Assembly: GCA_964503265.1 (NCBI GenBank)
Contig: CAZCYO010000004.1
Location: 162,157 to 226,156 of the forward strand
DNA length: 64,000 bases
Reading direction: 5' to 3'
Source: an uncultured Gammaproteobacteria bacterium
GTDB taxonomy: Bacteria > Patescibacteriota > Microgenomatia > Levybacterales > UBA12049
The notes under the pieces are model-generated. The model made no database searches, was not told where the DNA came from, and saw only the letters and a list, made by a program, of their open reading frames with translations. Numbering within the stretch: the stretch's first letter is position 1; every line of letters starts with the position of its first letter. The position numbers and the translations under genes are program-made. This document shows positions 2,086 through 48,678 of the stretch, piece after piece.

Positions 2086-2093
2086 TACGTAAT

Positions 2094-5680: not shown

Positions 5681-6449
5681 TATGTATAGAGTAGTATGTA
5701 TCATTACTTATCAGGCGAAATTATTAATTCTTCTTGTCCTACTTGCGACATGCTACTTGCTACTTGCTACAATACAATCCCATGCATTTACCATGAGTAA
5801 TGGGAATTGGATTATCCAGATGGGAAACCTTAATTCGGCAGCAGGAAAACCATCAAATAGCAACTTCAAGCTTGGAGTGACAGTCGGAGAAAATGGTCGA
5901 GGGCTTTATACGGGAACGAATTACAAAGTACGAGCAGGATTCCAATATATTAGTTCGATTATTCGATTTAGGTTTAGTATTTCAAACCTCCTTATCGACT
6001 TTGGAACACTCACACCAACTAATCCTGTTAAAAGAACGAATACATTGACAGTCACTAATGGCTCTGCAAACGGATATGCTGTAACCGCATTTGAAAACCA
6101 CCAACTCCTCGTTCCGGCCTCAGGGGTACTCATACCAGATACAACGTGTGACACTGGGCTCTGCACCGAAAGCACCGCTGCCTCATGGCCTGATTCAAGT
6201 ATTCTTGTGTATGGATTTGGCTATCGTTGTGATAACCTCTCAGGCACAGATTGTAGTACCTTCTCGACTGACTATTATAAGCAGTTCGCTGATGATTCAA
6301 AAGCAGAGACGCCACAGACTGTTATGTCTAGTCTTCTGGTGGGCAAAAATCGACAGGCGCAAATAACGTACAAAGTAAACATATCAGGTACACAGGCAGC
6401 TGGAAGGTACTCAAATGTGATTACCTATATCGCAACACCGACATACTAA
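5661..6449 (+). CDS. secreted protein, short member of the C-terminal ...TYIATPTY family (paralog of the three large proteins downstream)
   Basis: Signal-peptide-like N-terminus (LLILLVLLATCYLLLATIQSHA). C-terminus GRYSNVITYIATPTY parallels YRTMFTYVATATF in the downstream genes. Start chosen at an internal Met; the ORF track starts at 5604. Confidence 0.4.
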   Translation, partial: KLMASSSMYRVVCIITYQAKLLILLVLLATCYLLLATIQSHAFTMSNGNWIIQMGNLNSAAGKPSNSNFKLGVTVGENGRGLYTGTNYKVRAGFQYISSIIRFRFSISNLLIDFGTLTPTNPVKRTNTLTVTNGSANGYAVTAFENHQLLVPASGVLIPDTTCDTGLCTESTAASWPDSSILVYGFGYRCDNLSGTDCSTFSTDYYKQFADDSKAETPQTVMSSLLVGKNRQAQITYKVNISGTQAAGRYSNVITYIATPTY

Positions 6450-6507
6450 TGTGCGGAGTTAGTAGATAAAAGTTGGGAGTTAGGAGTTAGAATAATTACT
6501 AATACAT

Positions 6508-7530: not shown

Positions 7531-7537
7531 TTCATCC

Positions 7538-7572
7538 TTGACAAGTTAATTCTTTTATCGCAATACTGGAGT
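7538..7572 (+). promoter_or_regulatory. sigma70-like promoter (TTGACA-N17-CAATAC) directly abutting the start codon of 7573, possibly a leaderless mRNA
   Basis: TTGACA at 7538..7543; A/T-rich -10-like hexamer about 17 nt downstream. Confidence 0.4.
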
Positions 7573-8994
7573 ATGTTAAGAAATATTATATCTAAGATTG
7601 TGCTTGTATTGACACTTCTGCCTTTACTAGGTGTCTTCGTTCATACCGCAGAAGCAGCGACATTGTCAGCAGTTAAAGATACCATTACTACTTCTCGCCC
7701 ATCAGCTTCATGGTATCTCTCAAGTGACTATGCCACGACAGACACGACTGTTTCAATGACCGGTAATTCTACTTCACGCTATCTTGCCTCAGATTCTGCT
7801 CGACTCATTAGTGGCAATGGAACACCTCTTGGAAGCGCTGTAGTCGTTGCTTCACAATCTGCAGACTTAAAAACAGTGTATCTGGCCAACAGTAGTGGAA
7901 CTGCTGCTAAAACACCTTCAGATATCTTAATCGTACCGATTACAGCTAAACATACCTTTGTCTTTACGACTGTTACTTCTGTTGCATCTACTGGAAAGAT
8001 TGTCATCACCTTTCCTGGGTCTGGATCTAACATTGCTTCTCCCTCTGCTTCCACCTTCTCTTTTAATGGTCTTGCGAGTGCCAACATTAACACCACGTTT
8101 AGCTCAGGCACAACCACGTGTGGATCATATACCATCAGTGCTCCAACTATTACGTGTAACTTAGCTACTGCTGGTATTAACCCAGGTGTTACTGTCACGA
8201 TGGTTATTGGTAATTCAACCCCTGCCCTTATTAACCCTACTAAGTCAAATACTGCAGGTAGCAACGATTCGTGGAGAGTTACTGTGCAAACAACAGATAG
8301 TGGTGGCCTTGTGCTTGATGATGCGAAAATTGCGATTGGCACGATTGACTCTGTTAAAGTTACGGCTGATGTCGATCCATCACTTACGTTTACCATTGCG
8401 GGTGTAGCACCAGGCACAACGTTAAGTGGTATTAGTTCAACGACGAGTGTGTGTGGAGACACGACTACGGCTGGATTGCCAGCTGCAACAGCAACAGAAG
8501 TGAACCTAGGCTCACTTCGTAATGCAGCGATTAGTATAGCTGCACAGCGATTAACAGTCTCAACCAATGGTGCACAAGGATACACGATCTCTGCTACCTC
8601 TAGTGGCCGTATGATTAATCCTGCTACTGGTTTCTGGCTCTATGGATTAAATGGTGACACATTGCTCTCAGCTAATGATACCCCTGTCCCAGCAACCTTT
8701 AGGGCATCTGGATTTGAGGGCTTTGGCATCTCAGCATGTGGATCTCACTCAAGCACAATTGTGAGTAGCCAATGGGGTGGTAATGCATGTGCAACAGGAT
8801 TTTCAAGTGGCTGTAAGTATTCTAATCCGTACAATGTAGGAACAGCATCATTCTACTCAACAATCACATCCTATACTGGTGGCGCCGTCTCCTCTGATGA
8901 CACGATTGTAAAGTATGCAGGCACCGTCTCAGGAACCACACCTCCAGGTACGTACCGAACGATGTTTACTTATGTTGCCACTGCGACGTTTTGA
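7573..8994 (+). CDS. secreted Ser/Thr-rich surface protein with conserved C-terminal domain (FWLYGL ... YRTMFTYVATATF), possible WxL-like wall-binding protein
   Basis: Signal peptide. Near-identical paralog at 10191..11624 and more distant paralog at 11684..13093. C-terminal motif sits at the extreme C-terminus. Confidence 0.55.
   Translation: MLRNIISKIVLVLTLLPLLGVFVHTAEAATLSAVKDTITTSRPSASWYLSSDYATTDTTVSMTGNSTSRYLASDSARLISGNGTPLGSAVVVASQSADLKTVYLANSSGTAAKTPSDILIVPITAKHTFVFTTVTSVASTGKIVITFPGSGSNIASPSASTFSFNGLASANINTTFSSGTTTCGSYTISAPTITCNLATAGINPGVTVTMVIGNSTPALINPTKSNTAGSNDSWRVTVQTTDSGGLVLDDAKIAIGTIDSVKVTADVDPSLTFTIAGVAPGTTLSGISSTTSVCGDTTTAGLPAATATEVNLGSLRNAAISIAAQRLTVSTNGAQGYTISATSSGRMINPATGFWLYGLNGDTLLSANDTPVPATFRASGFEGFGISACGSHSSTIVSSQWGGNACATGFSSGCKYSNPYNVGTASFYSTITSYTGGAVSSDDTIVKYAGTVSGTTPPGTYRTMFTYVATATF
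8097..8840 (+). repeat. about 745-nt block essentially identical to 10727..11470 (offset 2630 nt) inside the tandem paralogs. Flanking parts of the two genes are clearly diverged.
   Basis: Identity begins at tttagctcaggcacaaccacgtgtggatc in both copies and decays near ggaacagc(a/t)tcattctactc. Confidence 0.8.
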
Positions 8995-9033
8995 TCTATT
9001 GCAACAATCTAAGATACTTGTAAGAATAATAGT

Positions 9034-10110
9034 ATGATTCAAATAACTGCCCAGTCAAAAGAATTACTAAAACAACCTGTTATGTCGACATTTAAAGTTG
9101 GAATAACTGTTGGTTTTATGGCAGTAACGCTCTTAGCTGCTTCACCATTTGCAATGTCTCTTTCCCCTTCTTCACAAGCTCATGCTCAATCAGTTAGAAC
9201 CATGACAATTGTTCCACCTACCGTTCAACTAGAACTAAATCCTGGGGAGACAACAGAAGGCACGATGAAGATTATTAATGATAGTGATGAGCCTCTTGAT
9301 CTTTCAGTCATGATGCAAGATTTTATCGTGGATAATAAAAATAGTATCCCAAATATCTTAACGCCTGATACTCTTTCTAATAAATATTCTGCGTCTGCCT
9401 GGATTGGTATTGATCAAATGCTTTTTAGTGTCCAACCGACAAAAACACAGCAACTCCACTACTATGTTCAGGTCCCTAAAAATGCTCGTCCTGGAGGCCA
9501 TTACGCTGCGAGTATTTTTAGTCCAAAGACTGAGAGCCAAGCAAATGGATCAGGAGCTGTCGTTAATTCACAAATAGGAACTCTTTTCTATATTACAGTC
9601 AAAGGTCCTGTTACCCAAAAAGCAACAGTTGAATCATTTACTGCACCAGGATTCTCCGAATACGGTCCTGTGGCTATTACCACAAATATTAAAAACAGTA
9701 GCGATATTCATATTCAACCAAACGGTATGATTACTGTTAAAAATATGTTTGGTCAAACAAGAGAACAGCTCTCTTTTAGCGGGAAAAATATTTTTCCTGA
9801 AGCTGTTCGTGAATTCGTCCATGAAGCAGGTAAAAAATCATTTATGATTGGACGATACACAGCCACTCTTAATGCATACTACGGTAGTAATCATGATCTC
9901 CCACTTGTCGCAACTGTTGCTTTCTGGGTTATCCCATGGAAGATTATCGTCGTGATTACACTTGCAATTATTGCAGCTGTACTTGGCTATCTCGCTATGA
10001 AGAAAAGAAATACAACACCAGAGGAACCAAAAGAACAGCAACCAACTGAATCAGCTACTCACGAAGAAGGAATAAAATCTCAAACAGATGCAGCTCCACA
10101 ACATGAGTAA
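9034..10110 (+). CDS. cell-surface protein with signal peptide and C-terminal TM anchor plus Pro/Glu-rich tail (paralog of 6508..7530)
   Basis: Signal peptide AVTLLAASPFAMS and C-terminal helix IIVVITLAIIAAVLGYLAMKKRN. Domain order shared with 6508..7530. Confidence 0.5.
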   Translation: MIQITAQSKELLKQPVMSTFKVGITVGFMAVTLLAASPFAMSLSPSSQAHAQSVRTMTIVPPTVQLELNPGETTEGTMKIINDSDEPLDLSVMMQDFIVDNKNSIPNILTPDTLSNKYSASAWIGIDQMLFSVQPTKTQQLHYYVQVPKNARPGGHYAASIFSPKTESQANGSGAVVNSQIGTLFYITVKGPVTQKATVESFTAPGFSEYGPVAITTNIKNSSDIHIQPNGMITVKNMFGQTREQLSFSGKNIFPEAVREFVHEAGKKSFMIGRYTATLNAYYGSNHDLPLVATVAFWVIPWKIIVVITLAIIAAVLGYLAMKKRNTTPEEPKEQQPTESATHEEGIKSQTDAAPQHE

Positions 10111-10154
10111 TCGGGTTATAAATTCTCCAAAGGTTAAATAAATGTCTTAAATCC

Positions 10155-10190
10155 TTGACCAAAATATACATTTTCTGTTTAGATTAGTAT
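10155..10190 (+). promoter_or_regulatory. sigma70-like promoter (TTGACC-N17-...TAGATT) upstream of 10191
   Basis: Positional analogue of the 7538 promoter in front of the duplicated gene. Confidence 0.35.
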
Positions 10191-11624
10191 ATGCGTTTTT
10201 ATTCAAACTCACTTATACTGAGCTTTCTCAGTATAATAGTACTTTTTCTCGGTGTTCACCCAGTAGAGGCAGCGACATTATCAGCAGTAAAAGATACTAT
10301 TACTACTTCCCGCCCATCAGCTTCATGGTATCTCTCCAGTGACTATGCAAGTACCGATACAACAGTATCTCTAAGTACTAATAGCTTATCCCGCTATCTC
10401 GCGTCTGACTCTGCTCGGCTTATCTCCCCTGGAACACCCGCAACAGGAGCGGTTCCTCTTGGAAGTAGTGTCGTTATCGCTTCTCAATCTGCAGATTTAA
10501 AAACAGTGTATCTAGCCAACAGTAGTGGAACTGCGGCAAAAACACCTTCAGATATATTAATAGTACCGATTACTGCCAAACATACAGTTGTCTTTACCAC
10601 GGTTACTTCTGTTGCATCTACCGGAAAAATCGTCATTACATTCCCAGGAAGTGGTTCTAACATTGCATCACCATCTGCATCAACATTTTCCTTTAACGGA
10701 TTAGCAAGTGCTAACATTAGTACGACCTTTAGCTCAGGCACAACCACGTGTGGATCATATACCATCAGTGCTCCAACTATTACGTGTAACTTAGCTACTG
10801 CTGGTATTAACCCAGGTGTTACTGTCACGATGGTTATTGGTAATTCAACCCCTGCCCTTATTAACCCTACTAAGTCAAATACTGCAGGTAGCAACGATTC
10901 GTGGAGAGTTACTGTGCAAACAACAGATAGTGGTGGCCTTGTGCTTGATGATGCGAAAATTGCGATTGGCACGATTGACTCTGTTAAAGTTACGGCTGAT
11001 GTCGATCCATCACTTACGTTTACCATTGCGGGTGTAGCACCAGGCACAACGTTAAGTGGTATTAGTTCAACGACGAGTGTGTGTGGAGACACGACTACGG
11101 CTGGATTGCCAGCTGCAACAGCAACAGAAGTGAACCTAGGCTCACTTCGTAATGCAGCGATTAGTATAGCTGCACAGCGATTAACAGTCTCAACCAATGG
11201 TGCACAAGGATACACGATCTCTGCTACCTCTAGTGGCCGTATGATTAATCCTGCTACTGGTTTCTGGCTCTATGGATTAAATGGTGACACATTGCTCTCA
11301 GCTAATGATACCCCTGTCCCAGCAACCTTTAGGGCATCTGGATTTGAGGGCTTTGGCATCTCAGCATGTGGATCTCACTCAAGCACAATTGTGAGTAGCC
11401 AATGGGGTGGTAATGCATGTGCAACAGGATTTTCAAGTGGCTGTAAGTATTCTAATCCGTACAATGTAGGAACAGCTTCATTCTACTCAACAATCACCTC
11501 CTATACTGGTGGTGCTGTCTCAGCTGATGACACGATTGTAAAGTATGCAGGCACAGTATCCGGCACCACACCTCCAGGTACGTACCGAACGATGTTTACC
11601 TATGTTGCCACTGCGACATTCTAG
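10191..11624 (+). CDS. secreted surface protein, tandem paralog of 7573..8994
   Basis: About 745 nt (10727..11470) are essentially identical to 8097..8840 at nucleotide level. C-terminus PPGTYRTMFTYVATATF. Confidence 0.55.
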   Translation: MRFYSNSLILSFLSIIVLFLGVHPVEAATLSAVKDTITTSRPSASWYLSSDYASTDTTVSLSTNSLSRYLASDSARLISPGTPATGAVPLGSSVVIASQSADLKTVYLANSSGTAAKTPSDILIVPITAKHTVVFTTVTSVASTGKIVITFPGSGSNIASPSASTFSFNGLASANISTTFSSGTTTCGSYTISAPTITCNLATAGINPGVTVTMVIGNSTPALINPTKSNTAGSNDSWRVTVQTTDSGGLVLDDAKIAIGTIDSVKVTADVDPSLTFTIAGVAPGTTLSGISSTTSVCGDTTTAGLPAATATEVNLGSLRNAAISIAAQRLTVSTNGAQGYTISATSSGRMINPATGFWLYGLNGDTLLSANDTPVPATFRASGFEGFGISACGSHSSTIVSSQWGGNACATGFSSGCKYSNPYNVGTASFYSTITSYTGGAVSADDTIVKYAGTVSGTTPPGTYRTMFTYVATATF

Positions 11625-11683
11625 CTACAAATAGCCAACCAGAATCTAGCAAAAAGAGATAACTTACGTTACTATAATTAGGT

Positions 11684-13093
11684 ATGGTAAAAAAATCTTT
11701 TTCTGTTATAGCAACCGTATCTGTTAGCTTCGTTCTACTACTTTTATGTACCCCTTTTGCCCATGCTGCAACGCTGTCTGCTGTCTCTGATAAACTGTCC
11801 ACATCCAGACCTTCAGCTTCAGCATATATAAACGCTGCATATGGATCAAGCGACTCAGTTGTAACGATTGTTAACAACGGTTCGCGATATCTTGCTTCTG
11901 ATTCTGCACGTATTATTGGCTCGCCTGGAAATGTGATTGGCAATCAAGTCACAGTCGCGTCACAATCTGCTGATTTAACAGGTGTGTATCTTGCTAATAG
12001 TACAGGCACTGCTGCTGGCTCCAGTACGTATAAAGATCTTCTGATTGCTCCTATCACCGCCAAGCACACTATTAGTTTTACGACTATTAATGCTGTGGCT
12101 GCAGGTGGAAAGATTGTCATTACATTCCCGGGTACAGGCTCTAATATAGCCTCTCCATCCGCATCAACGTTCTCATTTAATGGACTTACTTCTGGAAATA
12201 TTAGTTACTCTCCAAGTGCAGGATCAAGTACTTGCTCCTCATTTGTGATTAGTGCACCAAGCATTACCTGTACGATAGCTACGGCAACGCTCGATGCAGG
12301 AGTGACGGTGACACTCACGCTTGGCAGTTCAACGCCAGCACTGATAAATCCAACTAAATCAGGTACAGCAGGCACGAATGATGCATGGACAATGACTATT
12401 CAAACAACTGATTCAGGAGGAGTTACCATTGATGATGCGAGAATTAGTATTGGTACGATAGAGACAGTCAAAGTCTCAGGAGATGTTGATCCATCACTCA
12501 CCTTTTCAATCGCCGGAATCGCTGCTAGTACCTCATTTTCATCTCAAGTAAGCTCATGTAATGGTTCAGATTCCACTCAAAATACTCCTTCTTCATCAGC
12601 TACTGATGTTAGTCTGGGTTTCTTACGAAATGGCTCTATCAATATCGCAGGCCAAGTGCTAACAGTGTCTACGAACGGTTCTCAAGGATATACAATTTCA
12701 GCCACAAGTAGTGGTCAGTTTATCAATCCGTCAACAGGCTACTGGATTTATGGACTCAACAGTGATACAGCCTTAAGTGGGAACGATACGCCTGCCCCAG
12801 CTACATTTCGAGCAAGTGGACTTGAAGGGTTTGGATTATCAGCGTGTGGAAGTAGAGTAACAGCTGGGACATGGGGTGCGACTAACTGTACAACTGCGTT
12901 TAGTAGTGGGTGTAAATACTCAAACCCATTTAATACAGGCACTAACTCGTACTATGCAACCTTAGCAAGCTACTCGGGTGGCGCAATCTCAAACGAACAA
13001 ACAGCAGTTAAGTACGCAGGTAGTATTTCAGGAGCCACAGCACCGGGAACCTACAGAACCATGGTTACGTATGTCGCCACTGCTACATTCTAA
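11684..13093 (+). CDS. secreted surface protein, third paralog of the FTYVATATF family
   Basis: Same length and architecture, signal peptide, YWIYGL motif, C-terminus YRTMVTYVATATF. Confidence 0.55.
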   Translation: MVKKSFSVIATVSVSFVLLLLCTPFAHAATLSAVSDKLSTSRPSASAYINAAYGSSDSVVTIVNNGSRYLASDSARIIGSPGNVIGNQVTVASQSADLTGVYLANSTGTAAGSSTYKDLLIAPITAKHTISFTTINAVAAGGKIVITFPGTGSNIASPSASTFSFNGLTSGNISYSPSAGSSTCSSFVISAPSITCTIATATLDAGVTVTLTLGSSTPALINPTKSGTAGTNDAWTMTIQTTDSGGVTIDDARISIGTIETVKVSGDVDPSLTFSIAGIAASTSFSSQVSSCNGSDSTQNTPSSSATDVSLGFLRNGSINIAGQVLTVSTNGSQGYTISATSSGQFINPSTGYWIYGLNSDTALSGNDTPAPATFRASGLEGFGLSACGSRVTAGTWGATNCTTAFSSGCKYSNPFNTGTNSYYATLASYSGGAISNEQTAVKYAGSISGATAPGTYRTMVTYVATATF

Positions 13094-13149: not shown

Positions 13150-14091
13150 TCAATATCCCACAAACCAGGCATGATGTAATAGTTTCCGTGGTTTTCCGCT
13201 AATAAAATAGACTAGCCTATTACTATATATCCATGTGAAGCGTTCAGGCCATATTCTAATGATAAGCAGTGGGATAAGAATAATAAATGGAAGAGCCAAC
13301 CATAATGCGCCAAATGGAATACCAATGAGAAATTTCCATACTTTATCTAGCAGTTCACGCACCCATTTGATAAATTGCTCCCATAGAGGCAGTGATTTAA
13401 GCGTGAGAGTTCGACTTGGTTGCTCTGAGTCTTTTCCATTATATGTAGCATCAGCAAAAAGTGAATAACTCCCGGCTGGAACGTTATCGATAATCACTTC
13501 GTAGTAACCATCGGAGTCAGCTCTCGTCGTAATAATCTTGCCATTAATATGAAGCCGTACAAGGGCTAATGGCATAGTATACCCATACGCCTTTGCATTG
13601 GTGCCAGATGCAATCTCTGCACGCTCTAGCGCCAACGTAGGCGGCAGGAAGATATCTTTCATGGTAATATCTCCAGTTGCAGGTGGAAAGGTAAAACAAG
13701 TGAATGATTCACCTATGTTATGGTAGTCTTTGGCTAAAATACAAAATCCTGAAAACCCAATTTTTATTTGAATACCACTTAACGAGAAGTTACCAAATTT
13801 ATCTGCAACAGTAGAACGATAAAAAACCCCATTTGACGTTAATACGAGTGACGCATATGGTGAAATAAAACCAGACACATTAAGGAAGTACTCACCCACT
13901 GTCGCACTTACCGTAACAGGTGGTGATGTCAGTGAACGCTTAGCAGCAAGCGACAGAGAAGAAGTTATATGAAGGAAAAAAGAAAGAAGAATACAGGCAA
14001 GGACTACCGATGAAATCCCCTTTTTCTTGCTTACGTCTGGTGAACTACTAGATTCATTCCTATTGAAAAATCCCATAATATAATTAGGCAT
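13150..14091 (-). CDS. membrane-anchored surface protein with carboxypeptidase-regulatory-like beta-sandwich segment
   Basis: N-terminal TM, DSDGYYEVIIDNVPAGSY-type motif, C-terminal TM helices. Confidence 0.35.
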   Translation of the reverse strand: MPNYIMGFFNRNESSSSPDVSKKKGISSVVLACILLSFFLHITSSLSLAAKRSLTSPPVTVSATVGEYFLNVSGFISPYASLVLTSNGVFYRSTVADKFGNFSLSGIQIKIGFSGFCILAKDYHNIGESFTCFTFPPATGDITMKDIFLPPTLALERAEIASGTNAKAYGYTMPLALVRLHINGKIITTRADSDGYYEVIIDNVPAGSYSLFADATYNGKDSEQPSRTLTLKSLPLWEQFIKWVRELLDKVWKFLIGIPFGALWLALPFIILIPLLIIRIWPERFTWIYSNRLVYFISGKPRKLLHHAWFVGY

Positions 14092-15350
14092 CTCCTATAG
14101 TTCAAGGCTGGCGCTATGTTTAATCCTTCGCATATAAAGAAACATAGCCCTCTCTAAAGACCCTACTATCATTGTGACAAAGGAGATCGCAAAGAGCAAG
14201 TATTTTGAATCAAAATCATGCCTAATGAAGGGATTTTCATGTGGTGTTCAGCAGTAATAACACCTAAGTAGATACTCAGCAATTACTCATGATATAAAAT
14301 TTTACACCAGTTTTAGGCGACTACTAATTTTAGATTGATAAATCAATCTAAATAAATCTTGTTGTTTACCCCATCTAATTGCTAAAACAGCATTATTTTC
14401 TTTTTGACTATATTTGATGTAGTTAATAAGCCAGAGGTTCTGTGGATGTTAAAAAATAGCACTTTTTTCTACAAATGATTTAGGGGAAATGTATTAGTAT
14501 CAAAGTATATCTTAGCATAGCAAGATTATATTTCGCTTCTTATGAAAATACCTATTTACTACTTTTGTTTCACAGCAATTGAATTATGAAAGCATTTCCA
14601 GAGAAGATCAAGAAACATAATTCCCGAATCATGGCTGATTGACACAGTTTTATCCTCTTTGATCACTCACATCTTAAGAAATCAAATTAGATAAAATTAA
14701 CAAAATATACGAAAATTACCACCCTTTATGTCGCTTCACGGTTATTCCTACTTTTTTCTGTCTAGAATTAATACATCAATTAATATCAAAGAGTGTCAAA
14801 AATATGATACTATAAGGTATTGACAAGGCTAATTCCCTACCTTCACAATGAGTATAGATCTTTTACATTTTCGTTCCATGCTTTCGAGATAATCCGTATA
14901 ATGCGTATAATCTCGAAGCTGAGACGGAAATAACTGAGAAAGCAAAACATAACGTTCTCATTGTGAAATTTAAAAACATTTTTTCACAGGATACGTGAAA
15001 ACTGCCATTTCTCTTTTCACAAACAATCATGAAAGGATTTAAAGTCGGACACGACGCATCACTCACAATTAGTCACAAACATGTGTCAAAGATACAGGAG
15101 AACCTTCCACGTTGGTTTTGGTATCTGACAGCTCTTCCATTGAGTTTTGTACTTAGTGAAGCGTATTTACTCTTTTTCACAAAATAACTCCATGAACAAT
15201 TCTGCCCTTTATCAAGACCAAAAAAGCGCCGTTATATATATACATATATTAATTAACGGCATTATCGCCAGATTATCCCCCGTATAGCCACGCAATGTAT
15301 AAAAAGCAACTAGTCCTTCAGGCAAGAAGACCACAAGCGCTCAGTAAACA

Positions 15351-18300
15351 ATGAATTACATACAGCAATTTAAATCATATCTAGAGACTTCACAAAAGGC
15401 CTCTGTAGCTACAGTGAAGAATTATCTGAGTGATATCCGTAAATTTCAACACTGGCTAGAGACAAAGTCTGGTGAAGCATTTAATCCAACACTCGTTACC
15501 TCAGGGCGTATTGAGGAGTTTAAAGCTGAGATGAGAGAGTTATCTGTTAACTCATCTGATCGATACATCTCCTCCCTGCGAAAGTTTTATGCCTATCTGA
15601 TGACTGAAAACCTCGTGAGTAGTAATCCATTTGCAAGTGAAGATACAAAACAAAAAACTCTCACAAGTGATCCGTATCATCTCAAAGGGTTTAAGAATAG
15701 TTTGTATGAAGCAAACGCTTCTGAACCTACGATCAAAAACTATCTGGCTGATGTTAACCAATTTCTCATGTGGGGTGAGGAAGTTGCGATTAACAAGCAA
15801 TCACATATCGAAAGTGATAAAAACCTTCTTTCCAAGCTCAGCACAAAACTGATTGAAGAATATAAACAACGTCTTCATCACACAGCACATCTCTCACCTG
15901 TTTCTATCAACCGCAAACTCTCCTCTATTCGCAAATATCTAGCCTTTCTGCTAAACCAAGGCGTTGTTGATGCTGTCCCATTTGTGATAAATGCAAAACA
16001 GCACGAATTTTCACAAGAAGAAACTGCAGGGATAAGCGATAATCCCACAGAGGCATCGAGCTCGATAGAATCCAACATAAATGGAAATTCTATCCAGCCA
16101 CTCCAGAAGGAAAAGCTTGATCAAGAAGATCTTAACGTTAATCGCTCTCCTCTAAACCCCTCTAAGACATACTCTTCTTTTGGCCCACTTCGACTCTTCC
16201 AACGAATTGGCGGCCTTAGCAATTTCATATTTGATTTGCTAATGATCTTGCCTCTTGTGAAAATTATTGAGCATGCTCAATACCTATTCGTTAAATTGTC
16301 GGGAAAAGGTATTTTCACAGCAGCTGAAGCTAATATGCAATCAGCTAGTCTAGCTAGCAGAACGGCTGTTAAAGCGATAAATACAGTAGAAGAACTGATA
16401 TCTCAAAGAGCAAGTAGATCTCAAGTAAAAGGAATTCACCATTTCATTACCAGAGATAAAAAAACACTTGCTGATTTTGGATTCCGTGTTTCAAACCTCC
16501 CAAAAGAGATGTATGCGCCAATTTCTTTAACAAATCTTCCCTTTCATAAAAAAATGTGGCACCACATACGATTTACTCGCCCAAACTGGTATCGAAAATA
16601 TCATTCCTATGCGATTACTCACTACTTTCACTTCGCAATTTTAATGATCGTCGTAACAACACTTGGTGTTGGTGTGTATAATGGCGTCTTTAATAAAGCA
16701 CGGGAAACCAAAACGCTCGCTGCTCCCCCTACTGCGCCGCCGCGAATCCTCTCATTCCAAGGGAGACTGACTGATGCATCTGATAATCCAATAACCGCAA
16801 CTACCAATTTGCGGTTTACGATTTATAATGACCTCTCTGCATCAGGCTCAGCAAAACTTTGGGAAGAGGTCAAAACGACTACTCCAGACACTGATGGTAT
16901 TTTTAATACGTATCTGGGACAAGGAACTGTCATTCCTTCAACTGTTTTCACAGATAATGCATCACTTTACCTGGGTATCACAGTCGGCACGAACGATACT
17001 GAGCTGACACCTCGACAACAAATTGCAACTGTTGCATTCGCCGCAAACTCAGAAACACTCCAAGGTCTTCTTCCAAGTACTGGGGCCGGTGCGGGAACGA
17101 CTAATGTTGTGTTGGCGCTCGACTCATCGGGGAACCTTACGATTGGTGGTTCTGCTACCCCTACGTTTCAAGCAAGCGGCGGTCAGTTCACCCTTTCGGG
17201 TACTGTTCTTAAGCTAACGACAACCACTGGTTCAAACAGTAATATACAAATCACACCTGATGGCCTGGGTAAAATCGATATTCAGAAAGCAATGTATAAT
17301 GGCACTCTCTTCTCTCAATTGCCAACTGCGGCTGGAGCTGTCAACGTCGACGATCTCTTCGCAGTAAATGCGACATCTTCTGGTCAATCTGCATTCACGT
17401 TAAATCAGAACAGCACAGGACCATTAATTAGCGCTTCTGTCTCAGGAGTTGCCAAATTTACTGTCGATAATGCAGGAGCTGGAACATTTGCGAGTGATTT
17501 GGCTGTAAACGGAACAAGCATAACCACAAGCCAGAGTTCATTTAATTTATTAAACACAAACGCAGGAACACTTAACTTCGCTGGAGCATCGACAACCCTG
17601 ACGATTGGCGGGACAACTGGCACACTCGCGCTAAGGAACCCCGCTATTACACTTGGAGGTGGTTCAGCTACAACGATTCAAACGGCAAGTAGCCAAACCT
17701 TAACAATTGGAGGAAGCACAACCGGAGATATCATCGTTGGCCCACAGAACGGTGCTGCAGGCGGAACGCTTCGCCCTTCGACAAATAATGCAGTTGATTT
17801 AGGTACTGCTTCATTTGCCTATCGAAATCTCTATGTAAATAACATTATTGGCGCCTCAACTGGAGTCAATGGCTATTGGCAAAGAAATGCAAATGCTATC
17901 TCCCCTGCTAATATAACTGATGATGTACTGATCGGCGCAATTGCAACGAGTTCAGCTAAAATCCGTCTCGGAGGGACAACAAATGCAGACTCTTTCTTCA
18001 ATACAGGAGGAAATGTAGGGATTGGTACCACAACGATTGGATCAAAACTGACTATAGATGCCGGTGCTCTCCGCTTTACTGGTACAGGAGCATTCGGTAC
18101 GGGTACGGATGCTGGCGTTGTGGGAACCGGTGGTATTTCGGGAAGCCTTCAGTTCATTACGGCTGGTAATACGGCTGGCACAATTACAAATGCTGGTAAC
18201 CTCGGTATTGGTACGACCATAGTCAACTCGAAACTCCAAGTATATGGAACAACGAGTGGTAATGCGCTGGCTATGTTCGACCAACGAACGCTTAATGCTG

Positions 18301-21300
18301 ATGTATTAACAGCATCAGCATCTGGCACTTCGCTTTTTACTGTACGTTATAACGGCAATATAGGAATTGGCACATCTATCCCAGCAAGTATGCTTGATTT
18401 ACGTGGCACCACTACTGGTAATGCGCTTGTTTCTTTTGTACAAAATACAACGAATGCAGACATACTTACAGCTTCAGCAGGCGCAACAACCAAGTTGACA
18501 CTCAGACAAAACGGAAATCTTGGGATTGGCACCTCTCTCCCAGCTAGTCTTCTAGATATTAGAGGTACCACCACTGGTAATGCACTCGCCACACTCGTAC
18601 AGAACACAAGCGCAGATATCTTTACCGCTTCAGCTGGTGCTACAACACGATTTGTCATCCAAAATGCTGGCAACGTCGGTATTGGAACTAGTCGCCCAGC
18701 GCAACTCCTTGATGTTCAAGGTGGCGCTGGAATTGTCGCTCAATTCTCAGGAAGAGTGGTTGGAGCTAACGCTGCTGCTTCTAATGAATTTATCACTCTC
18801 TCTCAGCTTAACTCTTCAAATTACTGGCAACTAAATAGTGGGAGTATCTCTCCCTTCTCTAATACGCTTGATATTTTAGCTGGAGGAACTGCAACCGATA
18901 GTGCCAAATTTGCGGTATTAAATATGATAGGCTCTGGTACGCCAACGGCGTCTGTCTCAGCACAAAATGCCGGTGGACAGGCTCTCGTCTTAGCTGGGGA
19001 TGGTTCGATTCAATCCGTCAGAAAGAATACTCTAGTTATTGGAGGATCGACGACGGGAAATATAGACCTTGGTGCTGATGCAAATGCTCGACTCGTAACT
19101 CTGGGTAATACGACCGGAACAAGCTCACTAACACTTAACTCAGGCACGGGAAATATAGGTATCGGAACCAGCATTGCAAAAACCATTACAATTGGAAATG
19201 TCACTGGTGCGACAGCGCTCGCACTAAACGCTGGCACAGGTGGAATCGCACTTGCGTCAACATCAACAGGAGACATCACACTTGCCTCATCAGATACACT
19301 TCTTCTTGATGCGGCAGGAGTACTCGAGCTTAACTCTTCAGGCGGAGTTATTTCAATCGGCAATGATGCAGTAGCACAAAACATAAATCTGGGGACAGGT
19401 GCAGCGGCTCGAACGATTACCTTGGGAAATGTCACTGGTGCAACTGCAGTAAATGTTAACTCTGGTACAGGAGGAATAGCGCTTGCTTCTACGAGTACAG
19501 GAGATATAACCGCAACTTCATCAGACACACTTCTTCTCGACGCTGCAGGAGTTCTTGAACTCAATTCGTCAGGTGGAGTTATCTCGATTGGTAACGATGC
19601 TGTGGCCCAGAACATTAACCTAGGCACTGGTGCAGCGGCTCGAACGATTACTATCGGGAATGTTACTGGTGCAACCGCAGTAAATCTAAACGGTGGTACA
19701 GGTGGCATCTCGCTTGCCTCGACAACAACAGGCGACATTACACTCCTCTCTTCAGACCAGCTTCTCCTTCGATCAGCCAAAGCCGCAGGAGCGACGACAA
19801 CAGAAGCAATTCAACTCGCATCGACTGCAGATTTAGGAGCAACTGATGAGCTTCTTCAGATCAGCGATAGCGCGGGTACGTTCTTCACTGTCATGGGAAA
19901 TGGAAGTATCGGTGTTGGAACAACCACCCCCCTTGCCACACTTGACCTTCGAGGCAATTTAGGCACTACTCCATTTGCTTCTATCTCTGGTCAGAGTTCA
20001 TTTGCCGGCCTCATCGTAGATAACACTGGGGTTGGAGATCTCTTTACTGCGTCGAAGTCTGGTGCGACAAAGTTCACTATTAAGAATACTGGAAATGTCG
20101 GGATTGGGACTTCTCAACCAGCCCAACTCTTTGATGTTCAAGGTGGTGCAGGTATCGTCGCTCAATTCTCTGGAAGAGTTGTGGGTGCTAATGCTAGCGC
20201 TTCAAACGAGTTCGTTACTCTCTCACAGTTGAACGCGACTAACTATTGGCAGCTTAATAGTGGGACAATTGAACCATTTAGTAATTCACTTGATTTACTA
20301 GTTGGTGGCACTGCTACTGCTTCAGCGAAATTTGCTTTTATTAATAACATCGGATCAGGAGCTCCAACAGCGTCTATATCAGGTAATCTCGCAATTGCTG
20401 TTCCAACTGGTGCTAATCCTGCAACCACCTATTCTGCATTTAATGGTGGAACGGTAAACTTTAGAACGAGCGTCGGTGGGGACGCTGGAGCAACATCTCG
20501 ATTATTCATCGCAAATAATGGGAACGTCGGTATTAATACGACAACCCCTGTATATAAACATGAAGTCGACGGCACATTCTATGCTGGAGGGGCAAATGCA
20601 GGCATCGTCATTAGTGGACAGACCATCTTAGGAGGCACATCAGCATTTGGTTCAGTTGTCGACCATAATCTCGTTATCAATGCGAACAGTCTGGCTGGAA
20701 CACTTGCTCTTCAAGCTGCGAGCACAACTGAAATTTTCTTAGATGGAAATACTGGAAACGTCGGACTCGCTGGAGTAACAGCCCCAAATAACTTCCCTAT
20801 CGAAAGTGGAGGAAGTATCGGCCCAACAACTACTAATACCTATGACCTCGGCTCTTCATCACTCCAGTGGCGCAATGTTTATGGTCAGAACTTTTATCAA
20901 AACGGAACACTCGTTAATTTAACTAACTACTGGCAGCGAGCCCTAGGTGTCATCGCGCCATCAAATATAACTGATGATCTTGTTCTCGGTGGTATAGCTA
21001 CATCATCAGCAAAGGTTAGACTTGGAGGAACCACAAACGCAAATTCATTCTTTAATACTGGGGGCAGTCTCAGTATTGGCACCACTACCCCACTTGCCAC
21101 ACTTGATGTCAGGGGGAATCTCGCTACGACGCCTACAGCATCCTTCTCTGGCTCATCTACATTTGCTGGACTACTCGTTGATAACAACGGCACTGGGGAC
21201 CTCTTTACTGCTTCTAAATCTGGTGCGACGAAATTCACTATCTTAAATAACGGGAATATTAAAGCTGCTAATTATACAACCAATGGCGGGATTCTCTACA

Positions 21301-24300
21301 CGGACGCAACAGGTGTATTTAATCAGTCTGCTGCAGGCTCACCGGGACAATGCTTGGCATCTGCCGGTGGGGGTGCTCCAACGTGGAGTAGCTGTGGAGG
21401 AACTAACTATTGGAATCAGGTTAGTGGCATTGGTGTTAGTACTGGTGGTATTACCTACGTTGGCAATACCACGACTGATTTACTTATCGGTGGTACAGCC
21501 ACGACTTCAGCGAAATTTGCCTTCATCAATGTGCTAACTGGCAATCCAACACTTCGAGTATACAGCTCAAACAGCTCGCAATACATCCAAATGAATCATG
21601 ATGGCACAAACGGTAATATCACTGCATCAACTGGAACGATCCAAATTGGAACTGGTGGAGGCACACTATATGTTGAAACAGATATTATTAATGATACGAC
21701 GAGTAATAACGGCTATGTACAGGTATCAGATAAGTTTAAAGTAAATGGTACTGAGTCAGCCGGAAATGCACTGGTCGTTCTCAATAACGCAGGAGCTGGA
21801 GATCTCTTTACCGCGTCAGCTTCAGGTATCCCAAAATTCACTATTCGCACCGATGGCACTGCATCATCTGCTGGAAATCTTACCTTTACAACGGCTGCAA
21901 GTATCCAGACCACATCCGCTCAGAGCTTAACAATCGGTGGAAATACAACTGGAAGTATCATTCTTAACCCAAGTAATGCAGTCGCAGGAGGTGCTGTTCT
22001 CCCAGCAGTAACGAACGTTACCGATCTAGGCACATCAGCACTGCAGTTTAGAAATATTTATGGTCAGAACCTTTATAGTAACGGTGCATTGCTCTCTAAC
22101 TATTGGCAGAGAAATAGTAACGCACTTGCACCACTTAACATTACCGATGATATTTTACTTGGTGCGATAGCTACATCATCTGCGAAAATTAGACTTGGAG
22201 GAACAACGAATGCAGACTCCTACTTTAATACTGGTGGGAATGTGGGAATCGGAAGCACAACTCCTGGAGCAAAGCTTGATGTAGCGTTTGGAACAGTTAG
22301 TACAACAGCATTCAAAAGTATCTCGAACGTCGGCACAATTGCAACAACAGGCGTTTCTAACACGGGGTATGGTATCTATAACAGTATTACAAATACACCG
22401 ACAACTAACGCAAATACCGCATACGGCTTGTACAATTTAGTAACAGATAGTGCCTCTACAGGTAATACTGCCTATGGTGTCTTTAGCCAAGTAGACAGCA
22501 CGCAAAATATAAGTAAAAACCAATATTCAGGTTACTTCACTAACTCGAATACTTCTACGGTTGGAGGGAATATTTTTGGAGTATCTGGTGTTGGTCATGC
22601 AGCAGGAAACCTCGCTTCTGGAACATTTACTATTAAAGGAGGAGATTTTGCAGGTCTAGGAGTTGGGACAAGCACAGGTGGTACACGAAATGTCTATGGA
22701 CTAGATATTCGAGCAAGCACATCTAACGGAAATGGTTCTACAGATACAGTCTACGGCATTAAAGTAACTGGTGGCGGCACACTTACAACAGGAACATTAG
22801 CCACATACGGATTATACATAGCAAATGGAACGATGAATACTACGGGAACAACTACCAATACCGGACTATATGTAGAATCAATAACTGGAGCAGATACCAA
22901 TTACGCAGCGATCTTCGCTGGTGGGAACATCGGTATCGGAACTACTGCTCCACTGACCACGCTCGATGTTCGTGGTCAAACTGCTACCACTCCTATCGCC
23001 TCTTTCTCAGGCACGACGAACTGGGCGGGGCTGCTCGTTGATAATAATAATGCGAACGGGGATCTTTTTACTGCGTCAAGATCGGGTTCAACAAAATTTA
23101 CACTTAATGGATTTGGTGATCAGACGGCTGGCCAAACAGTGCTCGATGGTACAACCACAGCTAACGGAGCTGGTACGAACTCAACCACACTGATCTTAAC
23201 GAGTGCTGCGAGTTTTGATATCGGTAATTACGTTATGGTTTCCTCCACCAACTGTGTGACGGGTGTTAACATCTGTTACGCAAAAATCACCAACAAAGTG
23301 AGCAATACTCTCACTATCTCCCCTGCTATTTCCTGGGCTACGTCTTCTGTCGTCTCAGAACTACACATCCCAGAAATTGGCGGAACTGACCTGGCTCAAA
23401 CCTCAAAATTCCGCTATGGCCGCGGCTACTTCATAGACGGTATCGTGACAGGAAACGGCTCAACCTACTACTCAGATAAAAGGATTACGTTAACTGAAGG
23501 CGATCTTGGAATCGTGGGTGGAAACGTCGGTATCGGGACAGCGACACCGTCTGCACGACTGGCGATCAGACAGGATACCGCAGGAGACCTCCTCTCGATC
23601 AGAGATGGAAATAGTGGCAATGCATTCCAGATCGCCAGTGGTAGTGCGATCGTCTCCAAAGCCACCGGCTTTACAAAAGTTCTTTCCTGTGTGGGCGCTT
23701 CCTGTTCATCAAGTGATACTGGTACGTTCACAGATAGCACCGCTGAAGCATCGACATCAGCTGGAGTACTTCCATCAGCTCTCCTTACAGCTGCGGTAAC
23801 CACAGGAAGCTTCTATGTCGGACTTGATAAACCATTCTCAAGTGTCTACTTTAATATCAGTACTCCAGGCACGAATGTCTCTCTCGTTCGCCAGTACTGG
23901 AACGGCTCTGCATGGACAGCTATGCCAGCCAACACAGACAACACGGAGAGCCTCAAATTTAGTGGCGCAGTCTCATTCCCGTTCGTTCCAGCTACCTGGG
24001 CTCCAACTACCGTTAACGGAACCACCGGTCTCTACTGGATCAAATTCACGACGACGAGTGCTCCAGGCGTCGCACCAAACGTCTTTTCAGTCTCACCAAG
24101 TACCGGAAGCAGATTTACGCTGTATGCACAGAATGGAGATACAACCCCAGCTCTCACTGCGTCTGACTCAGGGTATATCGGGATTAATACAACCAATCCG
24201 ACCGATCGACTAGCAGTAAATGGAAATATCCAAGCATCCATTTTTAGGGACTTAGAAAACCCTGCATATTATATCGATCCGGCAGCTACAGGAAACTCAC

Positions 24301-27300
24301 TTATAGTTAATGGGAATGTCGGTATTGGTACAACTACTGCACAATCAAAGCTTGAAGTATACGGCTCGACACCTGTTGTCATAAATAGGAATACTTCATC
24401 AACTGGTTATGCTAGTTTTAGAGCATATAATGATCAAAATAGCAGTGCGCGATCCCTGGAGATTGATTATTCAGGTAGTGCCTATGCAAGCTCCCTTCTG
24501 ACAAGTGGCGTTACAGGAGAAGCAGCGTCCATTACCACCACTGGCGCCTTCCCGCTCATGTTTGGAACGACTAATACAGCAAGAATGACAATTTTAAGTG
24601 GTGGAAATGTCGGGATAGGAACGACTACTGCACCAGCCCTACTTACTGTTGGGGGTAATATCGGTTTGACTGGTGCAACATCAAATACTATTTTTTATGG
24701 AACTACTGGTGTCGCTGCGCCAGGAGCAGGAAGTGCTGGACAAAAAATTCAGCTTTATGGTACAGCTGGGACTATAAGCTCTACAGATTACGCATTAGGC
24801 ATTGAATCAAATAATCTATGGTTTAACACGGGCGGAACAGGATTCAAGTGGTATGCCTCATCTTCTCTAGTAGGTACACTCAGTAGTGCGGGACTCTTAA
24901 CATTAGCATCAGATATAAATATTCAAGGTCAAGACCTCCAGTTTAACGGGACAGTCCGCATGTCTGATTCTGTATCGTCTTCCTATACAGCTATCTCGCC
25001 ACAGAGTAATACGTTAATTGTCTATAATGGCTCTGCTGATCAAACATTTAGAGTTTATAATAGTGCTGGAAGTCACAACATAAGCCTCGCCTATTCTAGT
25101 ACTAATTATGGAGAACTCGCGACAACAAACCATTTAATCCTGACAGCTGGTAGTGGGAATATAGGAGTCGGAACAACAGCTCCTACAAGAAAAATTTCTG
25201 CATGGACTTCACTTACTGGTGGGTCCCCTTACTCCATGATAAATTATGCAGGTAGCGATGATGCAAACGAGGGAGTTCTACTTATGGGAATTAAACATAC
25301 CACAACAACAAATACTCGATTTATCAAATTCTTCAAAGGTATTAGCAATACCAGTGATAGCTATGCTGGAGCTACTGGTATAGGAAATATTCATGCAAAT
25401 AATACAAACGTTGTGTTCGATACAACTGGAACTGCTGACTTAGGAGAGTATATGTATATGGGAGAATCTGTTGAGGCTGGTGATATTATCTCTCAAACAT
25501 CTACGAATGGAATGAAAGCGACCACAAATAGCAATATTATGGGTGTGATCTCGCGAACTACTAGCTTTATGGGAAGTAGTGGTATCGCTAATGAACCAAA
25601 TACAGATATCGTTGGGTACGTTGGAAAGATTCTTACAAAAGTGTCAACAGTAAACGGCCCAATTCGTAATGGCGATGTCATCACAGCAAGTGTTATTCCA
25701 GGTGTTGGACAAAAAGCGACGAAGGCTGGACAAGTAGTTGGTAAAGCATTAGAAGATTTTGACCCCAATAATAACCCAGATGCATTCTCCTGTCCGGCTG
25801 GAACAGACTCAAACGTAAAATGCGGTAAAATTCTCTTATATGTAAATGCTTCTTGGTATGACCCAGACGTTTACATCACCGATACAGGTAATTTAAATAT
25901 TCAGACAGACGCAGGTGGTAACTTCGTAGCCTTTAATGCTGGAGATGCAGTCTCACGAATTGGTAGTTTTGCTTCAGCAGTTATCGCAAATCTTCAAGTA
26001 GGCGCGATCGATGCTCAGAAGATAACGACACAATCGTTCGCACTTGGCACAGAGAATATGACCGTAGCAGGTCAAAGTCTTAAGAATTATATTCTCTCAG
26101 TAGTTACTCAGGCAAATCTCGGTGGTGGACCTGGAAATAATCTTCCTGAGCTCACCGTAGGTAATCTAAAAACGAACCTCATCTCCCCACTCGCATCAGA
26201 ATCTGCAGTTGTTATCAGTGGTCGAGTCTTTATCGCAGGGAATCCTCTAAGTAACCAAGCTTCACTTGAAGTAACAGGAGATGCATCTATTTCAGGCACA
26301 CTTCGAGTTAAAAAAATCATCGCAGATGATATCGAGGGATTATCTGCGAAATTCGCAACACTCTCTGCCACAACTATCATTAACAACTACAATATAGCTT
26401 CAGATTCCGGTCAAGTCGTGATCCCGTCAAACGGGACCGGAATGACAAATAATTCAGCTTCAGGTTCAGGCCAGATTGAGCCTGCGTATCAGAACGGGAT
26501 TCCGACGCTTCTCTCTGGAAGTATCCAGACGAATTATGCAAATATTGCTTCCCTATCTGGCCAATTCGCCCAGACGAATAATCTCCAGGCAGAATTTGGT
26601 CAGTTTAACCAGGGACTCATGAGCTTGGGTCCGACTTCCCTCTCAGACACATCAGTCATAGGACAGTTATCAGTTGGCGGGAACATGATCCTCGCTGATA
26701 ATACGATTAATGTTCTCGGAGCAGATCTTCAGATCCAGCCACTTCGCCAAGGAGGCGTATCATTTGAAGGCGGACTTGTCGCGATCAATACAGATGGAGA
26801 CTTAACTGTAGGCGGAAGTGCAGTATTTAATCGAGATGTGACGATCAAAGGAGTACTCGCAACGAATATCATCTCCCCTGTTCCTGGTAGTAATTTAACG
26901 ATACGACTTGGAACAGATGTCTCAGATCCAACAAAAGATGGAATCTTTGAGATACAGAATGCTTCTGGATCAGGAGTACTCGCAGTAGATCAAAAAGGCA
27001 ACCTGACAGCGAGTGGTTCTGGCTTCTTTAAAGAGGTGGCTAGTAATCTCTTTAATATCGTTCGAGGTGCCCAGGCAGACACCTCAGTCACAGAAACGAC
27101 TGCTTCTGCTTCTGCGGGAACTGCAGTAATTAAAAGATACTATACAGAGCGAACTATTTTCTCACCATATGTATCTGAAAAATCCCTGATCTATGTCACA
27201 GCTACATCAGATACTCAGGGCCAGACTCCATATATCGCTCGCCAAACAGCTGAAGACCCAGGAACAGGAACGAAGGGATCTTTCACCATCCAAATACCTA

Positions 27301-48667: not shown

Positions 48668-48678
48668 GTTCACGGCTA

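Follow-up and report, generated by a model that had tools for sequence, protein, structure and literature searches.

Membrane-bound one-component regulators of the ToxR, TcpP and CadC type bind DNA through an OmpR-type winged helix, sense through a small periplasmic domain and act mostly as activators of transcription from upstream sites. Bacteria of the candidate phyla radiation (CPR), or Patescibacteria, are thought to live attached to host cells, and to our knowledge almost nothing is known of how their attachment structures are regulated or sensed. A precedent of a different kind is FliZ, which has an integrase core-binding (CB)-like domain without a catalytic domain and represses through −10-like sequences, one of them just downstream of the flhDC start (PMC3367168). 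The giant gene described here, G1, lies in a 64-kb stretch of a Levybacteria genome (contig CAZCYO010000004.1, positions 162,157 to 226,156; the whole stretch is called the window, and all positions refer to it unless another locus is named). It occupies 15351–27347 on the + strand and encodes a protein of 3998 amino acids (aa) in which twin CB domains are followed by a linker, a transmembrane (TM) helix and a tail-fibre-like ectodomain. Our favoured explanation, to which we assign a probability of about 0.5, is that the product of G1 is a membrane-tethered, probably trimeric, autorepressor acting on its own promoter.

The likeness to FliZ lies in the use of a CB-type fold without a catalytic domain and in the repeat units found upstream of G1, which are −10-like and lie at or past the predicted start of transcription. 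FliZ is, however, small and soluble, with one CB-like region and many chromosomal targets, whereas in G1 a tandem pair of CB domains is combined with a membrane anchor and an ectodomain of 3500 aa. With ToxR, TcpP and CadC, the protein shares an N-terminal cytoplasmic DNA-binding domain, a single TM helix, an extracytoplasmic C-terminal domain and, often, a co-encoded small membrane protein. It differs from them in using a recombinase CB fold (or, in relatives, a MerR-type helix–turn–helix, HTH), in its giant phage-fibre-like ectodomain and in a site position that suggests autorepression. Both N-terminal domains find their best matches, in sequence and in fold, among the CB domains of the Xer and phage (Int) recombinases, but G1 has no catalytic RHR-Y domain, its DNA element consists of directly repeated units, where recombinase sites have inverted arms flanking a crossover region, and it is anchored in the membrane. 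The G1 family would represent membrane-tethered one-component regulation with an unusual DNA-binding domain and an unprecedented ectodomain. No published description of a family with this CB–TM–fibre order was found in a literature search of incomplete coverage.

G1 is a single reading frame without interruption in the list of open reading frames (ORFs). The first CB domain, CB1 (aa 4–95; 15360–15635), is a tyrosine-recombinase core-binding (SAM-like) domain supported by Pfam, by an AlphaFold2 model and by Foldseek, and the second, CB2 (aa 110–208; 15678–15974), is supported by Pfam and by alignment. When the N-terminus is scanned alone, Phage_int_SAM_1 (PF02899) matches aa 4–87 with an E-value of 2.4e-13 and aa ~112–204 with 3.7e-9, both matches exceeding the gathering score of 22.3 bits; the related Pfam models SAM_4 and SAM_5 also match within residues 1–450. 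The Phage_int_SAM families are the only significant Pfam matches at the N-terminus, where no OmpR/PhoB-type winged helix was found, and across the whole of G1 no Pfam family other than the CB ones was found. In particular, the catalytic Phage_integrase domain (R-H-R-Y, PF00589) is absent from all 3998 aa. The NCBIfam models for XerC, XerD and XerS match G1 only over their first ~100 positions, scoring 78–86 bits against cut-offs of 330–335, and the FliZ model TIGR03823 gives a marginal 17.2 bits against a cut-off of 159.3.

The fold is predicted with high confidence. In the AlphaFold2 model of the N-terminus, built from an alignment of 22 sequences, the predicted local distance difference test (pLDDT) exceeds 90 for CB1 and CB2 alike, and the top Foldseek matches of these domains in the PDB are the core-binding domains of XerA, IntI, lambda Int and Brujita Int (probability ~1, root-mean-square deviation 1.9–3.6 Å over 91–100 residues). 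The signature residues of the CB motif are nearly invariant in CB1 and invariant in CB2, where T127, K129, N130, Y131, D134, F138, W141, R188, K189 and S192 are shared by all homologues in the alignment. CB2 is more strongly conserved than CB1 and is the domain that is kept, since relatives with a single CB domain align to CB2. Both domains are basic in most homologues, CB1 of the window protein having an isoelectric point of 8.9. The only PDB sequence match to the twin-CB region is chain 14 of 9i5v, a 401-residue chain of a ribosome entry labelled ‘RaiA’, the N-terminus of which aligns with a CB domain at an E-value of 0.0014; this may be another use of the CB fold outside recombination or a quirk of labelling.

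Beyond the CB domains, a disordered acidic linker (aa 209–273) and a basic, presumptively cytoplasmic region (aa 274–420) together span 15975–16610, as delimited by AlphaFold2 and by charge. The model has pLDDT below 50 over aa 213–272, then a long helix at aa 278–317 and a further helix at aa 421–452 that spans the TM segment. The basic region, specific to Levybacteria and missing from other clades, carries a net charge of +13 in the window protein and of +9 to +19 among homologues, and the whole N-terminus as far as the TM helix is basic. Hydropathy identifies a strong hydrophobic segment at aa 422–446 as the single conserved TM helix, and a weaker hydrophobic helix at aa 288–306 that falls within an insertion specific to Levybacteria and missing from other clades. 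The TM helix and the motif TRPxWYxxYHSY next to it (together 16575–16688) were defined by hydropathy and alignment, with R410, P411, Y414, Y417 and Y425 invariant in this juxtamembrane stretch. The other motifs conserved outside the CB domains are YSxFPPxRLxQK, within aa 274–420, KxFYAP, and PPRILSFQGRLTD at the start of the ectodomain. Given the basic charge ahead of the TM helix and the confinement of the weaker helix to the Levybacteria insertion, the simplest reading predicts a type-II membrane protein with its N-terminus inside and its C-terminus outside.

This layout had been proposed from the letters alone, and the analysis bears it out in most respects. The original prediction of two tandem recombinase core-binding domains agrees with the profile search of residues 1–450 and with the AlphaFold2 and Foldseek results, and its statement that no catalytic RHR-Y domain follows agrees with the Pfam search of the full protein. 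Its cytoplasmic DNA-binding module, one TM helix at about residue 425 and giant ectodomain are likewise the topology predicted here from hydropathy, charge and AlphaFold2. The comparison it drew with ToxR and CadC holds as a description of layout, that is, of domain order, hydropathy and predicted topology.

The fusion of a recombinase-derived module to a fibre might be suspected of being an artefact or a product of decay, in which a truncated integrase gene is joined to an unrelated surface gene by a frameshift or a misassembly. Public names lend this some colour: a search with the 480-aa N-terminal module found 65 proteins, nearly all from Patescibacteria/Microgenomates, most of them named ‘site-specific integrase, partial’ and others ‘recombinase XerD’, and most of the database entries end at contig edges. 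The closer matches among them are, however, 30–40% identical over the entire query, and the module is 33–45% identical to 21 homologues, mostly at full length. The same layout in a single ORF was found in at least 374 loci in a scan of one genome per species and in at least 437 metagenome loci. A hidden Markov model search of 1.84 billion cluster representatives returned 711 proteins at E ≤ 1e-30, each standing for a cluster defined at 50% identity, and all of the best 150 representative proteins encode CB domains, TM helix and fibre in one ORF, the shortest (truncated entries) being 415 aa and the longest 6048 aa. The uninterrupted architecture in hundreds of independent assemblies, with conserved motifs at the junction, refutes an artefact, an explanation that is now hardly credible; the fusion is genuine, and the suggested search of related genomes for giant proteins with the same N-terminus has uncovered a large conserved family. 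The conserved linker and juxtamembrane motifs point to purifying selection across the junction between N-terminus and fibre. Since the catalytic domain is absent, the public ‘integrase’ annotation is, judged by sequence, functionally wrong, and the error is widespread. Most of the family belongs to Levybacteria. Complete orthologues fall into two size groups, of ~1350–1600 aa and of 2500 to >3700 aa, and there are short members of 695–743 aa that still have the DNA-binding module and repeats.

The DNA upstream of G1 contains what may be the target of this module. A sigma-70-like promoter (14820–14849, + strand; TTGACA, an 18-nt spacer and CACAAT, 10 of 12 consensus positions matching in a scan) is followed at 14887–14923 by a candidate operator of three direct repeats with a 9-bp period and a conserved 3′ flank, recognized from words shared among orthologue upstream regions and by pattern scans. 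The units in the window are AGATAAT (14887–14893), GTATAAT (14896–14902) and GTATAAT (14905–14911), and the flank reads CTCGAAGCTGAG, for which the family consensus is YTNGARGCTAA. The consensus derived from the shared words is (G)ATAATCNGTATAATCNGTATAATCTCGWGGCTAA, again with three units and a 9-bp period, and the element in the window is the only exact match in its 64 kb. Of 80 genome loci, 64 contain the exact pair GTATAATNNGTATAAT, in every case on the gene strand and a short way upstream of the orthologue. A generalized pattern, scanned on both strands of 169 locus sequences (1.81 Mb in all), returned 128 hits; the opposite strand had none, and 127 lay upstream of the gene and one elsewhere.

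A sigma-70-like promoter followed by two or three direct repeats precedes the gene in every clade. TTGAC[ATC] lies within 110 nt upstream at all 111 loci with an exact tandem motif, the gap from it to the first unit being 30–35 nt at most non-Levybacteria loci and 45–70 nt at most Levybacteria loci. The general architecture can be written as CCTCTTGACA-N17/18-TATAGT-GTATAAG-N3-GTATAAN-N3-GT[A/C]TAAT-YTNRANCYTAAAC, in which the heptamer units are invariant and the spacers variable. Measured from the predicted −10 hexamer, the repeats start after ~7–12 nt outside the Levybacteria and after ~20–45 nt within them, so that in most clades they begin near the predicted start of transcription. Between the element and the start codon there are 11 to ~450 nt, and at some loci the last repeat comes within 11–20 nt of that codon. 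The unit GTATAAT also resembles, by our own observation, the arm segment GCATAAT beside the central region of Escherichia coli dif, GGTGCGCATAATGTATATTATGTTAAAT (PMC3025954).

Other elements in the same stretch were considered and set aside. A dyad can be read in the window repeats (82% over 17 nt), but it is made up largely of the TATA-rich units and of flanks that are not conserved, and the direct-repeat description was preferred. A structured RNA was rejected because RNAalifold predicted zero conserved pairs from 28 aligned repeat regions and Rfam matched only tRNA in the window. The palindrome GCCGTTA-N19-TAACGGC at 15216–15262, between a small ORF and G1, had been put forward in the original prediction as an example of a conserved motif that the module could bind. 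Its AT-rich core ATACATATATTAAT is common to three close relatives (the window, L001 and L003), but its arms are not conserved in L001, L003, L011 or L056, and it was rejected as a general binding site; the conserved element is the one at 14887–14911, and the palindrome fails even in the closest relative, L001. Downstream of the repeats, words of the form TTTTCAC(A/G) or TGTGAAAA occur in 59 of 74 upstream regions, including those of L003, L007, L031 and L036; the window has four copies of these words within 14961–15022, and those at 14961–14968 and 15015–15022 form an 8-nt inverted pair.

The repeat unit varies with clade, and the units within a locus change together. GTATAAT with a period of 9 is found in Levybacteria and several other clades, GTCTAAT (CGTCTAAT) with a period of 10 at ~40 loci of the P0056 clade, and GTGTAAT at L084, while small clades have other variants. 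The −10 hexamer has a conserved A at its second position (the −11 A) that is missing from GTCTAAT and GTGTAAT, so the element is not simply a stack of promoters. Relatives with a single CB domain still have at least two repeats. Four clade-specific changes in the CB domains (T21S, S68T, S74A and K189R) were candidates for specificity determinants and were set aside as confounded by phylogeny.

A change of a more drastic kind affects the DNA-binding domain itself. A protein recovered in a search with the C-terminal region, P0096, has two MerR/HTH_17 domains in place of the CB domains. A single contig, L081, carries both a twin-CB gene and a MerR-type gene with the same juxtamembrane motif (of the TRPxWYxxYHSY type, which MerR-type relatives retain), TM helix and ectodomain start. 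Two further genes of the MerR type came to light, and one of these, in a Woesebacteria genome, occupies the leuS-divergent slot; the last protein search for such relatives gave seven hits, of which two were usable. At the MerR-type genes of L081, L170 and L171, the promoter TTGACA-17-TACAAT is followed directly by three AAATCTA repeats with a 10-bp period, and L169 has two copies of AAATCTAT ~220 nt upstream. In L081, therefore, GTATAA-type units stand at the CB-type gene and AAATCTA units at the MerR-type gene of one contig. These comparisons support the view that the N-terminal module is exchangeable for another DNA-binding fold, an HTH of the MerR/excisionase type. Two unrelated DNA-binding folds on the same chassis, each with its own repeats, provide the strongest argument that DNA binding has been selected and that the repeats would be its target. 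A gene for bAvd, an accessory protein of diversity-generating retroelements, is located at 15537–15899 of L081, immediately upstream of the MerR-type fibre gene (16019 onwards); because of this position, some of these fibres may be targets of hypermutation.

The ectodomain begins with a membrane-proximal module (16713–17450; PPRILSFQGRLTD to PRQQIATVAFAANSETLQG) that is conserved in all clades and in the MerR-type relatives. It continues with a variable, internally repetitive middle of ~2600 aa (17451–25250), delimited by the conservation profile, by orthologue lengths and by BLAST of the protein against itself, and ends with a conserved C-terminal region (aa 3301–3998; 25251–27344) containing a chaperone-like segment at aa ~3344–3408 and a terminal beta-sandwich. 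The composition is rich in T, G, S, A and N, and the sequence repeats within itself, chunks of the fibre middle matching one another at up to 198 bits. Only aa 1–700 and aa ~3300–3998 of the window protein are conserved; tblastn coverage as far as aa 700 extends to ~74–75 of 80 loci, and the middle is mostly missing from the common orthologues of 1350–1600 aa. On this comparison, the fibre middle is a lineage-specific expansion.

Likeness to phage fibres and tailspikes resides in the C-terminal region and its equivalents. Peptidase_G2 (of the phi29 gp12 type) matches the window protein weakly (E 0.1, 12.4 bits against a gathering score of 25), whereas the orthologues L005 and L014 score 31–34 bits, above that threshold, at the equivalent place. 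Peptidase_S74 (of the endosialidase type) is found in the relatives P0218, P0226 and P0088, among relatives of the C-terminal region and full-length twin-CB proteins. An AlphaFold2 monomer of the last 698 aa has low confidence overall (pLDDT 52) and is confident in two beta-rich parts only; its Foldseek matches are weak, with phage tail-fibre and tailspike entries at the top of the list and frequent within it. No PHROG family matched the ectodomain of G1 or that of its neighbour G2. By analogy, the ectodomain is probably of tail-fibre or tailspike type and trimeric. Unlike phage fibres, G1 is cellular and chromosomally syntenic, and its N-terminal part supplies a membrane anchor and a DNA-binding module on the cytoplasmic side.

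In the explanation we favour, the cytoplasmic N-terminus of G1 would act as a sequence-specific DNA-binding module made of two Xer-type CB domains that have lost their catalytic domain. It would bind the three GTATAAT repeats, spaced 9 bp apart just downstream of its own promoter, and so repress transcription of an operon comprising a small-peptide gene and G1 itself. The amount of inserted, and perhaps assembled, fibre would then feed back on the synthesis of a very costly protein. That the CB domains physically bind the repeats is what we infer from the sequence comparisons. The sign of the regulation, autorepression rather than ToxR-like activation, is suggested by repeats that lie at or past the predicted start site, where repressors typically bind. 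The three repeats, the chaperone-type fibre and the retention of at least two repeats even for single-CB proteins suggest that an oligomer binds, the simplest candidate being the fibre trimer; the link between trimer formation and the number of repeats would follow from the same considerations.

Several points weigh against this reading. The match between domain type and repeat type could reflect co-inheritance of a cassette of promoter and 5′ coding region rather than recognition; exchange of such cassettes would account for the linkage, though not for each unit having been conserved over the long term. The number of MerR-type loci is only four, and the confounding of the clade-specific CB changes with phylogeny applies here as well. 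The transcription start sites are predictions; the repeats are predicted to be transcribed, and a role at the level of single-stranded RNA is possible. There is no simple correspondence between three repeats and two CB domains per chain. Finally, the exclusivity of the repeat site was judged on the 1.81 Mb of locus sequences, and the protein may have a wider regulon or serve as a tether.

A bolder form of the autorepressor proposal, which we put forward only tentatively, treats the fibre itself as the transcription factor. Only correctly assembled trimers would join three modules on three phased repeats, and the cell would read fibre number, and possibly the mechanical or host-bound state of the fibre, at the promoter. 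The module, whether CB or MerR HTH, would be interchangeable together with its cognate operator, and the whole would constitute a previously unrecognized class of envelope-to-DNA coupling in ultra-small epibiotic bacteria.

Other purposes can be imagined for a DNA-binding module on the inner end of a fibre. G1 could be, as the original prediction chiefly had it, a sensor of host contact of the ToxR/CadC type, in which engagement of the fibre tip, or tension on it, alters the oligomeric state or frees the N-terminal module by proteolysis to control a wider regulon more than its own gene. Its layout is that of membrane-bound one-component regulators, it adjoins a host-interaction pilus operon in Levybacteria, its juxtamembrane and linker motifs are conserved without an assigned role, and the small membrane peptide often encoded with it loosely recalls the ToxS and TcpH partners. 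We nevertheless consider a sensor unlikely, because the sole conserved candidate site found is the gene's own promoter, with a repressor-like position, and the ectodomain, a fibre with an intramolecular chaperone, looks structural rather than ligand-binding; in addition, no cleavage motif was recognized in G1, protease genes not having been searched for. Rather more doubtful is a structural role as a tether or transertion anchor, in which the first-translated module grips DNA, either its own gene in cis or many sites, and couples the nucleoid or the locus to the membrane, aiding co-translational export of the 3500-residue ectodomain or positioning the chromosome under the fibre with little regulatory purpose. 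The module does stand at the extreme N-terminus, 420 residues ahead of the TM helix, the candidate site lies in cis, at the operon's own 5′ end, and would be compatible with a tether, the strongly basic aa 274–420 could bind DNA or lipid non-specifically, and fibres from ~1200 to 6048 aa are built on the same N-terminus. However, the members of 695–743 aa keep module and repeats, so that giant size is not required, and a site overlapping the start region would affect transcription in any case.

The repeats could also be something other than a binding site for G1. They might be promoter or leader elements, such as stacked −10-like hexamers or a signal for translation or RNA stability, read by RNA polymerase or another factor, while the CB domains serve in protein–protein contact, in recruitment of an Xer recombinase or in binding imported DNA near ComEC and ComEA. 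GTATAAT does contain the consensus −10 hexamer, the promoter scan also calls TCGAGA-16-TATAAT promoter-like, the predicted transcript includes the repeats, the last of them comes as close as 11–20 nt to some start codons, and synteny with comEC and comEA is conserved. On the other hand, GTCTAAT, GTGTAAT and AAATCTA are poor −10 elements and yet are equally conserved and phased, a spread of 11 to ~450 nt to the start codon ill befits a leader signal, a separate canonical promoter is always upstream, and the unit goes with the type of DNA-binding domain even where both types share a contig. This explanation appears more doubtful again than a tether, and the autorepressor remains our preferred account of both module and repeats.

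Hundreds of species genomes encode a member of this family, in which a host-facing fibre and a DNA-binding module are directly joined. If the module does bind the repeats of its own promoter, it would offer a simple system, a soluble 210-residue module and a 40-bp operator, with natural variants of specificity (GTATAAT, GTCTAAT and GTGTAAT) and a natural swap (MerR HTH with AAATCTA). It would add to FliZ a second example of a recombinase core-binding domain put to use in transcriptional control, and could reveal how very small cells ration surface proteins that are very costly to make, and possibly how events at the surface reach the genome. At a minimum, a widespread annotation error is corrected.

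The gene order around G1 in Levybacteria is comEC(−), comEA(−), leuS(−), a block on the + strand, G1, a TPR protein gene, an M23 peptidase gene (−) and rho (−). The block directly upstream of G1 is a Pam-type pilus gene cluster (5604–13093, + strand), identified by NCBIfam, signal peptides, TM helices and synteny. It comprises a PamT-like gene (5604–6449; NCBIfam, below cut-off), three pilin paralogues (7573–8994, 10191–11624 and 11684–13093) with signal peptides, six or seven cysteines and the Pam pilin C-terminal domain, and two genes (6508–7530 and 9034–10110) encoding a signal peptide and a C-terminal TM helix, the layout reported for the PamC and PamD chaperones. The NCBIfam models NF058579 and NF058581 match the genes at 5604–6449 and 7573–8994 with scores below their cut-offs. 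A gene for a membrane protein lies divergently beside the cluster (13150–14091, − strand).

The Pam pilus system of CPR bacteria has been described by Troman et al. (2026, bioRxiv, 10.64898/2026.03.03.709456), who report that in Saccharimonadia and Microgenomatia a tail fibre-like protein is consistently found beside pam operons; the words integrase, recombinase and Xer have zero occurrences in their text. G1 resembles that protein in lying directly downstream of a Pam-like cluster and in its tail-fibre-like ectodomain, and location and ectodomain type suggest that it is probably the same protein. Pam-like genes are found directly upstream of G1 at most Levybacteria loci. No pam genes were found beside the distant members L084 and L170, though these keep the leuS-divergent position, so the association with the Pam pilus is clade-specific. 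Within its N-terminal 450 aa, the part scanned against NCBIfam, G1 has no match to a Pam component; the matches there are Xer-type, weakly FliZ and, at chance level, PspC.

The comEC–comEA–leuS block (25–4634), divergent from the fibre gene, is present at most Levybacteria loci and at the distant L084 (2140–7362); at the Woesebacteria locus L170 (185–2893) leuS alone was seen in the divergent position. This synteny is real and may reflect either a functional link with DNA uptake or a lineage-wide inherited gene order. Between the repeats and G1 lies a small ORF of 52 aa (15029–15187, + strand), the translation of which has a hydrophobic C-terminal stretch. At 45 loci repeats and gene are at least 100 nt apart, and 35 of these, from several clades, have an ORF of 38–66 aa with a strongly hydrophobic stretch in this position; the 52-aa ORF of the window falls below the hydrophobicity cut-off of that scan, and its C-terminus resembles the ORFs of L011 and L056. 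The small membrane peptide may be a partner protein.

A second giant ORF, G2 (27352–37515, + strand; 3387 aa), begins 5 nt past G1. It has a basic N-terminal tail of 42 residues, one TM helix at aa 43–65 and an ectodomain rich in T, G, S and N; no DNA-binding domain and no Pfam or PHROG match was found in it. It aligns with G1 at ~22% identity in many registers. G2 was rejected as a conserved partner of G1, as it is not syntenic beside the orthologues at other loci.

Further along the window, an ORF with an SLH domain (48035–48667) is followed by ~13 kb of short, broken ORFs on the + strand. The GC content of this part (48035–62000) is mostly 0.48–0.56, with 0.40 at 56–58 kb, against ~0.40 elsewhere, and neither tandem repeats nor Rfam matches were found in it. 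It may be one or two decayed or frameshifted genes for giant surface proteins, or foreign DNA. Two proteins with DUF11 surface repeats are encoded at 43555–44295 and 56657–57349, and a TraG/VirD4-like type IV coupling protein is encoded on the − strand at 45085–47373.

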